Assembly (NCBI GenBank): GCA_038320305.1 | Contig: JBBQEC010000001.1 | Location: 1-44,802, forward strand | DNA: 44,802 nucleotides | Direction of reading: 5' to 3' | Origin: Candidatus Limnocylindrales bacterium | GTDB lineage: Bacteria > Chloroflexota > Limnocylindria > Limnocylindrales > CSP1-4 | Part shown: in pieces, positions 40,896 through 42,438 of the stretch | Numbering within the stretch: the first letter of the stretch is position 1 | Layout: every line of letters starts with the position of its first letter | The notes under the pieces: model-generated | Told to the model about the DNA's origin: nothing | Database searches by the model: none | Seen by the model: the letters and a program-made list of their open reading frames with translations, nothing else | Made by a program: the position numbers and the translations under genes

Positions 40896-41966
40896 ATGCT
40901 GTCGCTGACCGGATATTTCACCAACATGCTGAAGCTGATCCGACCGCCGAAGGCCCGTCGCGACCTGGCCGACACGCTGCCTGACGACGTTCGCGACCAC
41001 CTCGCCAAGTGCGACCAGCTGAAAACAGCCGTCGACGCTCCCGTGACGCGGCTGGCCGGTTCCTTCGGCCGTCACACCGGGCAGGGCGACATCCACGACG
41101 TCGACATCCTCGTCTTCGTCGACGCGAGTTATGCCGACCAGGACCCGGCAGTCGTCCTTGACGACCTCGCGGAGGCGCTGCGTGATCTCGAAGTCGACGG
41201 CTATGGCACGGGCGAGATCAAGACAGCGCGCAAGAACCGGCGCTCGCACCACGTTGAGTTCAAAAAGGACGGCGAAGCCGCATTTCACATCGACGTCGTG
41301 CCCGTCGTTCGCCCCGGCGACGACCCCGATGCAGTCTTGTTGATCCCTGACCGCGAATGGGTCGCGTGGGATGACACACAGCCTCTCGGCTACGGCACGC
41401 GCTTGGTCGAGCTCAACAAGGCCAACGAGCTCAAGGTAAAGAAGACGATCAAGCTCATGAAGCGCATCCGCGAGCGCCACCTGCGCACCAGCTTGAAGCG
41501 CCCGAAGAGCTATTGGCTTGAGAGCAAGGTGTACGAGCTCTGGCGCGACGGCCGACTCTCGAAAGACGCGTCACTGGCCGATCTCATGTACCAGCTTCTG
41601 AACGCGATTCGCAGCGATTGCGGCCAGACCAGGCTGGCCATCTACGACCCTTGCCTGGGGCGCGACCTGACCGAGAGCTGGGAACAGGCCGAGTACGACG
41701 AATTCGTCGAGATGCTCGACAAGGTGATCGGGTACCTCGAACCCATTGCGTACGAGGCGGACGCCGACACTGCGGTCGAGGCGTGGCGCAAGGTCTTCGG
41801 CGCAGACGTTTTCCGGCTCGACAGCGACGTGGAGCAGGAGACGAAGAAGGCCGCCGCAGCGCTTGCGGCCGGAGCCACGGTCGCCCGGAGCGGTCTGGTC
41901 GTGCCGGCCAGCTCCGGCGTGGCAGGAACGACATCACCGTCGCACAGCTTCTACGGCGAGGACTGA
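40896..41966 (+). CDS. CD-NTase / SMODS-family cyclic oligonucleotide synthase (CBASS cyclase)
   Basis: 356 aa. Pol-beta NTase motif 'LAGSFGRHTGQGDIHDVDILVFV' (G55-S56, D68-x-D70). Third acidic residue in 'HIDVVPV' (D133). Helical 'KKTIKLMKRIRERHL...SYWLESKV'. Long Ala/Gly-rich C-terminal tail ending SHSFYGED. Confidence 0.8.
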   Translation: MLSLTGYFTNMLKLIRPPKARRDLADTLPDDVRDHLAKCDQLKTAVDAPVTRLAGSFGRHTGQGDIHDVDILVFVDASYADQDPAVVLDDLAEALRDLEVDGYGTGEIKTARKNRRSHHVEFKKDGEAAFHIDVVPVVRPGDDPDAVLLIPDREWVAWDDTQPLGYGTRLVELNKANELKVKKTIKLMKRIRERHLRTSLKRPKSYWLESKVYELWRDGRLSKDASLADLMYQLLNAIRSDCGQTRLAIYDPCLGRDLTESWEQAEYDEFVEMLDKVIGYLEPIAYEADADTAVEAWRKVFGADVFRLDSDVEQETKKAAAALAAGATVARSGLVVPASSGVAGTTSPSHSFYGED

Positions 41967-42021
41967 CACGGCCGGCCGGTGGGCGACACAGCGACTCACG
42001 CCCGGCCAGCAGATCCTCGAG

Positions 42022-42438
42022 ATGCAGCGCCGATTCCCGACGCTACACCTCGTTGGCCGAAGTCCGTTGGCCTGGCAGGGCGACATCGAACCGAGCGAAT
42101 CAGGTCGCGCTTTCACGCTCCATGTCGAGATCCGCGGCGGCCGCGCTCCGCGCGTGCTGGTGCTTTCGCCCAAGCTCGAGAACGACCCGCAGACCGGTCG
42201 CCCGCCGCACACGTTCGGCGACCGTTCGCTGTGTCTCTATCACGTGAGCGAGTTCATCTGGACAGGCAAGGAAAGCGTCGCGTCCACAATCGTCCCGTGG
42301 GCGTGCGAGTGGTGCTGGTACTACGAACATTGGGAGGAGACCGGTCGCTGGCTCGGGCCTGAGTTCGAGCACACCGCACCGAAACGGCGTGACACGCGCT
42401 TCGACGATGACCGGGCGTCGCGGCGGTCAGCCGCATGA
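42022..42438 (+). CDS. stand-alone prokaryotic E2 (UBC-fold)-like protein (Cap2-short-like)
   Basis: 138 codons from the first canonical start. The upstream in-frame sequence 'RLTPGQQILE' also looks like part of the N-terminal helix, so the start is uncertain. The core 'PPHTFGDRSLCLYHVSEFIWTGKESVASTIVPW' mimics HPN...C...W of E2 enzymes. ATGA-coupled to the next gene. Confidence 0.55.
   Translation: MQRRFPTLHLVGRSPLAWQGDIEPSESGRAFTLHVEIRGGRAPRVLVLSPKLENDPQTGRPPHTFGDRSLCLYHVSEFIWTGKESVASTIVPWACEWCWYYEHWEETGRWLGPEFEHTAPKRRDTRFDDDRASRRSAA

Follow-up and report, generated by a model that had tools for sequence, protein, structure and literature searches.

The locus studied here raises the question of how an E2 protein is made from a gene whose start codon appears to be missing, and what that E2 would do with the C-terminus of the neighboring cyclase. 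The window, a stretch of 44,802 nucleotides from an uncultured Chloroflexota genome, contains an E2-only (short type II) CBASS operon (Table 1). The E2 stands alone, in a stop-to-stop frame of 41965–42438, between the cyclase and TIR-SAVED genes, and the TIR-SAVED ATG overlaps the E2 stop codon (ATGA). Pfam and PADLOC searches gave no match to an E1 (Cap2 adenylation domain) or a JAB peptidase (Cap3) among the operon and flanking ORFs, which encode a CapP-like M78 peptidase, TIR-SAVED, and an REase-like protein. The E2, tagged PF26395 E2-CBASS in the database, is the single E2 match in the genome. The cyclase has the catalytic set GS…DxD…D, with G55, S56, D68, D70, and D133 invariant among 33 homologues, and the TIR-SAVED protein is of the cyclic-nucleotide-sensing SAVED type by which an E2-CBASS effector is recognized.

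Table 1. Coordinates of the features of the E2-CBASS operon in the window.
Feature	Position	Strand	Basis
CD-NTase / SMODS cyclase, 356 aa	40896..41966	+	Pfam SMODS 1.7e-12; PADLOC cyclase 8.1e-44
Conserved cyclase C-terminal tail, predicted E2-docking/conjugation element, residues 309-356	41820..41963	+	35 homologues, 33-75% identity
Gly354 codon GGC, invariant subterminal glycine	41955..41957	+	alignment A5, 33 homologues
Glu355 and Asp356, putative removable extension after Gly354	41958-41963	+	counterpart of Sm cGAS G406-E407
GAGGA resembling a Shine-Dalgarno element, spaced 5 nt before ACG 41968; also codes for Glu355/Asp356	41958..41962	+	
Altered cyclase/E2 junction TGACACGG	41964..41971	+	junction table versus nine relatives
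ACG where the E2 start of relatives aligns	41968..41970	+	ungapped alignment with L017
E2-CBASS gene, full homologous extent, 156 codons and stop	41968..42438	+	PADLOC E2 1.4e-35
E2 helix α1, residues 13-23 (stop-to-stop numbering)	42001..42033	+	DSSP on AF2 model
Catalytic His82 (CAC 42208-42210) and Cys90 (TGT 42232-42234), intact	42208..42234	+	invariant in 18 E2 sequences
TIR-SAVED effector, 387 aa	42435..43598	+	Pfam SAVED 1.2e-16, TIR_2 5.8e-08; PADLOC SAVED_TIR 1.5e-41

We compared the operon with the E2-CBASS of S. marcescens (CdnG/cGAS-E2; PDB 8hsb and 8yjy; Yan et al., bioRxiv 10.1101/2022.05.25.493364; Xiao et al., PMC12948482). In both systems, which lack E1 and JAB, the cyclase is followed by a stand-alone E2 and accompanied by a SAVED-domain effector, and the C-terminal end of the cyclase carries a helix, conserved strands, and a subterminal Gly with a short extension. 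Both E2 proteins have the catalytic His/Cys pair (His82 and Cys90 align with SmE2 H87 and C101) and a second His. The AF2 model of the E2 (pLDDT 84) found the S. marcescens E2 chains 8yjy_B and 8hsb_B as its best Foldseek matches (TM 0.71, probability 1.00). The two systems differ in the effector, which is TIR-SAVED here and 2TM-SAVED plus an exonuclease in S. marcescens; in the number of residues after the Gly (two versus one); and in the length of the cyclase, which at 356 aa is about 50 residues shorter than the 407-aa S. marcescens enzyme. The identity between the two E2 proteins is low (26–27%), and, in contrast to S. marcescens, a canonical start is absent from the homologous position of the E2 gene here.

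The tail of the cyclase comprises the 48 residues that follow FGADVFRL (DSDVEQETKKAAAALAAGATVARSGLVVPASSGVAGTTSPSHSFYGED), rather than the approximately 55 given by the sequence-only reading. That reading correctly described the tail as rich in Ala, Gly, and Ser (46% of its residues) and noted a Gly near its end; the protein terminates with Gly354, Glu, and Asp, followed by TGA (41964–41966). The conserved subterminal Gly, for which it had suggested a cyclase alignment, was borne out, as Gly354 is invariant in the 33 homologues. To call the tail disordered, however, was an overstatement. A helix is predicted at residues 310–324 with moderate confidence, followed by A.VT..G.VVPA and then P.H.[FY][FY]G-x(1-5), and the motif A.VT..G.VVPA...P.H.[FY][FY]G is common to 33 of 33 aligned homologues. 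Judged by this alignment, the tail is a conserved family element and not merely low-complexity sequence. The C-terminal helix and β-sheet of SmCdnG recruit the E2 and represent the E2-docking element of the family (PMC12948482), and the predicted helix and strand layout of the tail agrees with that published motif. Between one and five residues follow the Gly in close homologues, and up to nine in distant loci, with the same motif in both; this extension of 1–9 residues is often a mere by-product of the overlap between the cyclase and E2 genes.

In the S. marcescens system, Cys101 and His87 of the E2 cut off the residue after Gly406, forming a thioester and then an isopeptide bond, and deletion of the E2 abolishes T4 immunity (bioRxiv 10.1101/2022.05.25.493364). 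By homology with this CdnG-E2 pair, the E2 of the window would dock on the cyclase tail, its Cys90 and His82 would cut after Gly354, and the cyclase would be linked to the E2 by a thioester and then an isopeptide bond, which would prime cyclase activity. The proposal that the tail is either trimmed or exchanged on the E2 cysteine was right in substance, but its two options are one and the same published reaction (bioRxiv 10.1101/2022.05.25.493364). An AF2 model of a 209-aa construct of tail and E2, translated with a +1 step across the stop (TGAC=D) and well aligned (A7), gave the tail a pLDDT below 50 and placed Gly354 relative to Cys90 with low confidence. The mixed cyclase and E2 alignments A3 and A6, in which MAFFT misplaced the E2 rows, were left out. 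The subterminal-Gly biology of the tail is already known, and our result for the tail is confirmatory.

In type II CBASS with E1E2 and JAB (Cap2/Cap3; Ledvina et al., Jenson et al. 2023, PMC10097602), the cyclase C-terminus is likewise a ubiquitin-like conjugation handle; in contrast, the operon here has no E1 domain or JAB peptidase. In E2-only systems, processing is performed by the E2 itself (bioRxiv 10.1101/2022.05.25.493364). The cyclase tail also resembles precursors of ubiquitin and UBL proteins in that a few residues beyond a Gly have to come off before conjugation, although in this case the “UBL” is an enzyme's own tail and the E2 acts as the processing protease.

Gene callers place the start of the E2 at ATG 42022 (138 aa). 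Our scan of the E2 frame agrees with the sequence-only reading that no ATG, GTG, or TTG lies between the cyclase stop and this codon (41965 to 42021), a stretch whose near-cognate codons are limited to ACG 41968 and ATC 42013. The frame is open upstream into the cyclase gene, with an in-frame TTG at 41863. Nineteen codons without a start are not unusual at 64% GC (an estimated chance of ~50%); the unusual part is that the start codon is missing at the homologous position. The stop and start codons overlap by one base in 9 of 9 close loci (TGATGG, TAGTGG, or TAATGA), and the other surveyed loci all have an ATG, GTG, or TTG 9–21 codons upstream of the column of M42022. The window alone differs, and its junction, TGACACGG, makes the homologous codon ACG and places the E2 in the +1 frame relative to the cyclase. 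The region of the ACG (MAGRWKRQRLTPGQQIFEM) aligns without gaps with that of the nearest relative, L017 (TAGRWATQRLTPGQQILEM), and the ACG stands opposite the ATG of L017; where the relatives have the ATG or GTG of an intact E2 gene, the window has ACG. The earlier question of a non-canonical start or an error is narrowed by this comparison, which points to the change of the junction from TGATGG to TGACACGG as the cause.

The sequence-only reading had also remarked that the sequence upstream of ATG 42022 reads like an E2 helix, and PADLOC, phmmer, and the lengths of 147 E2 representatives all show homology there. In the stop-to-stop translation, in which the ATG is residue 20, alignment to the PADLOC E2 profiles begins at residue 8, and the phmmer alignments to many E2 homologues start at residues 5–11. 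Seven of the 11 residues of α1 lie upstream of the ATG, and this helix was present again in a second model. Between the ACG and ATG 42022, 17 codons can be compared with those of L017: 7 are identical, 7 have synonymous changes, and 3 have non-synonymous changes. This codon comparison shows a pattern of evolution as coding sequence, and the 17 codons would encode most of α1.

These findings bear on the annotated start. An E2 beginning at ATG 42022 would have to work without the first 7 residues of α1 and the conserved R-L-T-P segment, which we consider very unlikely. This ATG is the first canonical start past the cyclase stop, the catalytic residues His82, Cys90, and His136 are all downstream of it, and the equivalent Met is the annotated start in 5 of the 147 E2 representatives; short forms may therefore be tolerated, or these five may be similarly mis-called. 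However, the ATG has no Shine-Dalgarno sequence (-1.8 kcal/mol for the duplex with the anti-SD), and lies 55 nt beyond the cyclase stop, and residues 11–20 are modeled as part of the fold (pLDDT 95). In the family, the median protein has 18 residues before the M42022 column, and this column, occupied by M, L, or I, is a hydrophobic position in the helix and no conserved start.

Among canonical in-frame starts, TTG 41863, inside the cyclase gene, alone would yield a complete E2 core. Its use is highly unlikely, as the anti-SD duplex is weak (-3.1 kcal/mol, spacing 11) and the resulting 35-residue Arg/Pro-rich extension, drawn from the +1 frame of the cyclase tail, has the composition typical of out-of-frame GC-rich translation and no counterpart in any relative, whose frames differ. 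GTG 41979 was rejected as the E2 start; it belongs to the frame of the cyclase, could serve only after another indel, and has its SD 15 nt away. The minus-strand ORFs 41584–41937, 41934–42212, and 42100–42372 and the plus-strand ORFs 41618–42247 and 41979–42362 had no Pfam match and were treated as GC-rich noise. The small ORFs upstream in relatives, including the DUF3892 gene of L052, have no counterpart in the window.

The ACG itself might serve as a working start if ribosomes ending at the cyclase UGA and held by GAGGA re-initiated there, giving low but sufficient, possibly tuned, amounts of full-length E2. The codon occupies the exact homologous start position, the codons downstream of it are under purifying selection, and the SD-like element lies at the optimal spacing of 5 nt with a duplex energy of -6.2 kcal/mol, compared with -6.9 kcal/mol at the cyclase start. 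On the other hand, the conserved Gly-Glu-Asp coding dictates GAGGA, and -6 kcal/mol or lower is attained at 14% of random positions. Detectable Met-initiated protein is produced from ACG in E. coli, but only at about 0.1–1% of AUG initiation (bioRxiv 10.1101/063800), a range that may not hold in Chloroflexota. The E2 is in part an enzyme (protease/ligase), so that small amounts may do, although the S. marcescens E2 sits in a 1:1 complex with its cyclase; furthermore, a non-canonical start is found in none of about 20 related loci. We regard a working ACG start as improbable.

The arrangement also recalls a +1 ribosomal frameshift, which at GAC-UGA-C would fuse the cyclase to the E2 (…FYGED-DTAGRW…), after which the E2 moiety would cut after Gly354, a step presumably shared by natural fusions of cyclase and E2. 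The E2 reading frame is +1 and runs open through the cyclase stop, and UGA-C is a weak stop context. In natural CD-NTase-E2 fusions (PADLOC PDLC00816; P0091, 503 aa; P0142, 564 aa; L016), the same tail motif, …[FY].G, runs into the E2 N-terminus, and the spacing from the Gly to the E2 equals that of the hypothetical read-through product; for P0091, P0142, P0078, and L016, the spacing from the Gly to the helix matches within one residue. However, those fusions are single ORFs, whereas here a UGA and a change of frame separate the cyclase from the E2. The prfB (RF2) site, CUU-UGA-C with an upstream SD, shares with this junction the UGA-C stop, the +1 downstream frame, and a nearby SD-like element. 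None of the features of such a programmed site (a slippery codon, an SD approximately 3 nt upstream, and conservation) was found here. The P-site codon is not slippery, since ACU offers tRNA-Asp no re-pairing; that codon is overlapped by the SD-like element, whereas the SD of prfB lies 3 nt upstream; and the arrangement occurs on one contig only, with another junction in the nine relatives. In addition, the downstream RNA structure is no stabler than shuffled sequences (z = -0.89), and the AF2 fusion model showed no confident docking of the tail. Frameshifting at this site is barely credible. That the missing start is functional, with E2 made only by ribosomes that finish the cyclase, either by re-initiation at ACG or as a +1 self-cleaving fusion, is quite improbable.

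An error in the consensus or assembly would leave the true genome with a normal start (e.g., TGACATGG), C 41969 being a miscall or a minority strain variant. A single base change gives back a canonical ATG, the genome is a fragmented MAG (365 contigs, 83% complete), and the remaining operon is intact. In contrast, the site is no homopolymer, and a frameshift census against a genome of the same genus found few or no frameshifts: across 177 kb of orthologous coding sequence, no more than 2 loci were ambiguous. This result tests indels and not substitutions; most of the nine signals in the census were splits in the comparison genome or intergenic indels. We consider an error unlikely.

We favor plain loss of the start codon, leaving a hypomorphic or dead E2, as the most likely reading; this option was absent from those first proposed. 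A recent mutation may have destroyed the E2 start codon, and one path would take just a 2-nt insertion, which yields TGACATGG, and then a change of T to C. With the start codon gone, the E2 is probably made poorly or truncated. A small fraction of the normal amount could still arise from ACG, aided by GAGGA and by ribosomes terminating 1 nt upstream of the codon; alternatively, the product would be an E2 truncated at Met 42022, without most of α1. Whether this E2-only CBASS operon has undergone such a recent loss, its E2 scarce or truncated and this copy of the system hypomorphic or inactive, is in our judgment an even call. The strong conservation seen in the 17 upstream codons is equally compatible with continued translation and with a recent loss, and the operon is otherwise without decay, the cyclase and TIR-SAVED both being full length, which counts against the favored reading. 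The exact cyclase and E2 proteins were found on one contig only in the databases, and the nearest relative has 75% cyclase identity. This single copy of the lineage gives neither a polarity nor a date for the junction mutation.

The start-codon result is chiefly of consequence for annotation: the database E2 protein (138 aa) is 18 residues short relative to its family, and activity of this CBASS copy should not be assumed. Only if the E2 is made would the native junction bear on how much E2 an E2-CBASS needs and on the viability of a fusion intermediate of cyclase and E2. If the junction were functional, the supply of E2 would be tied to, and far below, that of the cyclase, and this would be a new way to set the level of CBASS priming, intermediate between separate genes and cyclase-E2 fusions. 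Our study also extends the rule of a subterminal Gly plus a disposable extension in E2-CBASS to a Chloroflexota clade.

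Pfam and PADLOC profile searches identified a cyclase, an E2-CBASS protein and a TIR-SAVED effector, and no E1 or JAB gene in this operon. The three genes make up a CBASS operon of the E2-only (short type II) kind. The source MAG, from Chloroflexota, comprises 2.57 Mb in 365 contigs, with 83% completeness. A divergent M78 peptidase gene lies upstream of the CBASS genes, as it does in relatives L001 and L020, with an HTH fusion in L020. A restriction-enzyme-like ORF begins 80 nt 3′ of the effector gene, and no methyltransferase was visible between it and the contig end. In relative L052, a DUF3892 gene separates an HTH regulator from the cyclase gene; no counterpart was found in the window leader (40000-40950). 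Relative L018, in which an IS element (rve transposase) directly precedes a 68–69% identical cyclase, has a split effector call, compared with one TIR-SAVED protein of ~387 aa, and this effector may be broken.

Features of the CBASS locus and of compared loci and proteins
Feature	Position	Strand	Details
M78 peptidase	39607-40188	-	CapP-like; PADLOC CapP 3.4e-10
SMODS/CD-NTase cyclase	40896-41966	+	356 aa; Pfam 1.7e-12; PADLOC cyclase 8.1e-44
E2-CBASS protein	frame 41965-42438	+	PADLOC E2 1.4e-35
TIR-SAVED effector	42435-43598	+	PADLOC 1.5e-41; ATG overlaps E2 stop (ATGA)
Restriction-enzyme-like ORF	43679-44539	+	286 aa; PADLOC type II restriction enzyme model 1.8e-13
DUF3892 gene (relative L052)	L052:725-1006
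Effector (relative L018)	L018:4502-5665		50-aa ORF + 326-aa SAVED protein
Cyclase-E2 fusion protein P0091			503 aa; single ORF
Cyclase-E2 fusion protein P0142			564 aa; single ORF
Cyclase-E2 fusion protein P0078			229 aa; single ORF
Cyclase-E2 fusion (locus L016)	L016:83-862		single ORF

The sequence-only reading described a disordered, Ala/Gly/Ser-rich cyclase tail of about 55 residues after FGADVFRL. The composition held (46% Ala/Gly/Ser), the length was counted as 48 residues, and the disorder was overstated, given the conservation. Among 35 homologues (33–75% identity, word-index search), all full-length cyclases shared the motif …A.GA.VT..G.VVPA…G…P.H.[FY][FY]G followed by 1–5 residues. 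The Gly noted near the stop is Gly354 (codon 41955-41957; end …SHSFYG-ED-stop), and the suggested comparison of homologues bore it out: G333 and G354 were invariant in a 33-sequence alignment, while the residues past G354 varied freely (DR, D, EE, ER, NR, ED and others). An AF2 model of the tail region predicted a helix at residues 310-324 with moderate confidence, and the remaining tail with low confidence. The tail is not a disordered stretch evolving freely. In distant E2-CBASS loci, the cyclase motif recurs as [HN]x[FY][FYH]G with 1–9 trailing residues, often encoded within the overlap of the cyclase gene with the E2 start; there, the “extension” that E2 has to remove after the Gly seems to be a side effect of the two genes overlapping.

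In the S. marcescens E2-CBASS, the cGAS tail, in which G406 is followed by E407, threads into E2; SmE2 C101/H87 act as a cysteine protease that cuts off whatever follows the Gly, fused MBP included; E2 and cGAS are linked first by a thioester and then by an isopeptide; and T4 immunity is lost on E2 deletion or on mutation of G406, C101 or H87 (bioRxiv 10.1101/2022.05.25.493364). The cyclase, whose Gly is conserved, recruits E2 through a C-terminal helix and three-stranded sheet (PMC12948482). The window likewise encodes a cyclase tail with a conserved Gly and a short extension, ED following Gly354 as E407 follows G406. By homology, the tail would serve as the conjugation handle that E2 processes, as published for S. 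marcescens, and this half of the finding is already-known biology. Trimming of the tail and exchange on the E2 cysteine, previously offered as alternatives, both occur in the published system, as one reaction.

The AF2 model of E2 (18 sequences, pLDDT 84) matched the S. marcescens E2 chains 8yjy_B and 8hsb_B best in Foldseek (TM 0.71, probability 1.00), with no other significant match, and E2 matched 8hsb_B by sequence at 4e-08. His82, Cys90 and His136 aligned with SmE2 H87, C101 and H152; all 18 aligned E2 sequences carry His82 and Cys90. The E2 frame indeed contains no ATG, GTG or TTG from the cyclase stop to ATG 42022, and ACG 41968 and ATC 42013 are its only near-cognate codons there. Part of the E2 N-terminal helix was also correctly placed upstream of this ATG: helix α1 of the model spans residues 13-23, counted from stop to stop (pLDDT 95 at residues 11-20), and the ATG is residue 20. 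PADLOC E2 profile alignments begin at residue 8, and many phmmer alignments to E2 homologues at residues 5-11. In 147 representative E2 proteins, a median of 18 residues (mostly 13-25) precedes the M42022 column, with the consensus R.L[ST]…Q…[MLI]…FP, matched in the window by RLTPGQQILEMQRRFP. These alignments show that E2 homology reaches upstream of ATG 42022, and the observation of the tail and of the E2 start anomaly is confirmed. ATG 42022 is 55 nt past the cyclase stop and lacks a Shine-Dalgarno sequence (-1.8 kcal/mol), which makes a functional short E2 from M42022 quite improbable.

Nine loci with cyclases of this family (L001, L005, L017, L018, L020 and L050-L053) have a junction at which the E2 start codon and cyclase stop share one base, reading TGATGG, TAGTGG or TAATGA; that of the window, TGACACGG, differs from all nine. 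Distant loci have other overlaps, yet each has a canonical E2 start, 9-21 codons before the M42022 column. At the junctions of L008, L009, L011, L012 and L022, the overlap encodes up to 9 residues after the conserved Gly (e.g. GDAAPRLL, MENEQTAKG). The E2 N-terminus of the nearest relative, L017 (cyclase identity 75%), MAGRWKRQRLTPGQQIFEM, aligns without gaps to the window frame, TAGRWATQRLTPGQQILEM; therefore, ACG 41968 and the L017 ATG are homologous codons. Between ACG 41968 and ATG 42022, 17 codons comprise 7 identical, 7 synonymous and 3 non-synonymous ones relative to L017, a pattern absent from the other two frames of the segment. Since most codons are identical or synonymous, translation of the segment has persisted through most or all of the period that separates the window and L017 lineages. 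Compared with TGATGG, the window carries a 2-nt insertion and a T-to-C change. We infer a path from TGATGG through a plausible intermediate, TGACATGG; since a good E2 start would still be present there, a single transition may be the inactivating event. The E2 anomaly traces to an altered junction in which the start codon was lost. The likeliest reading, to which we give about an even chance, is that E2 function was recently lost or is hypomorphic.

ACG 41968 might itself be used, since GAGGA stands at 5-nt spacing (-6.2, near the cyclase's own start, -6.9). In E. coli, ACG belongs to a codon class initiating at ~0.1–1% of AUG, and Met-initiated protein was confirmed by MS (bioRxiv 10.1101/063800). 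However, this GAGGA also serves to encode Gly-Glu-Asp, and an equally good score is reached at 14% of random positions; we consider ACG initiation unlikely. Initiation at the upstream in-frame TTG 41863, with a weak Shine-Dalgarno sequence, would add 35 non-homologous Arg/Pro-rich residues to E2 and is very improbable.

A consensus error at the E2 start is about as unlikely as ACG initiation. As an indel proxy, 160 orthologue-like ORFs (177 kb) of a same-genus genome were compared with the window's assembly. Of the nine frame-split signals, two arose in intergenic sequence as artefacts of the method, four had one continuous ORF in the window's genome and a split in the comparison genome, and three, at two loci, were ambiguous; therefore, the assembly is not indel-prone. 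This comparison is blind to substitutions, so a base miscall at 41969 is possible. No second contig with the exact cyclase or E2 protein was found in the databases. A gene continuous in contig C68 of the window's genome (8476-10746) occupies two frames in the single-contig same-genus genome G002 (locus L033, G002:C1:460001-480000), and loci L031 and L044 show similar splits; G002 probably carries indel errors, and its use as a reference calls for care.

Natural cyclase-E2 fusions (P0091, P0142, P0078, L016 and PADLOC PDLC00816) are single ORFs joining the tail motif to the E2 N-terminal segment. Motifs such as …TRFHG-G, …TFYG-G and …TNLG-G lead directly into this segment, and P0091 has an internal Met (…FHGGKMARHR…) in place of the would-be E2 start. 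Slight alterations of the junction where stop and start overlap, which is also the site altered in the window, seem to give rise to such fusions. Their Gly-to-helix spacing equals, within one residue, that of a hypothetical +1 frameshift product of the window cyclase and E2. However, GAC-UGA-C lacks a slippery codon, and its P-site codon is overlapped by the Shine-Dalgarno-like motif; local RNA folding is nothing unusual (z = -0.89), and no relative has this arrangement. A prfB-like +1 frameshift is disfavoured on these features, and we consider such a fusion extremely improbable. The window system is an E2-CBASS with a probable defect.
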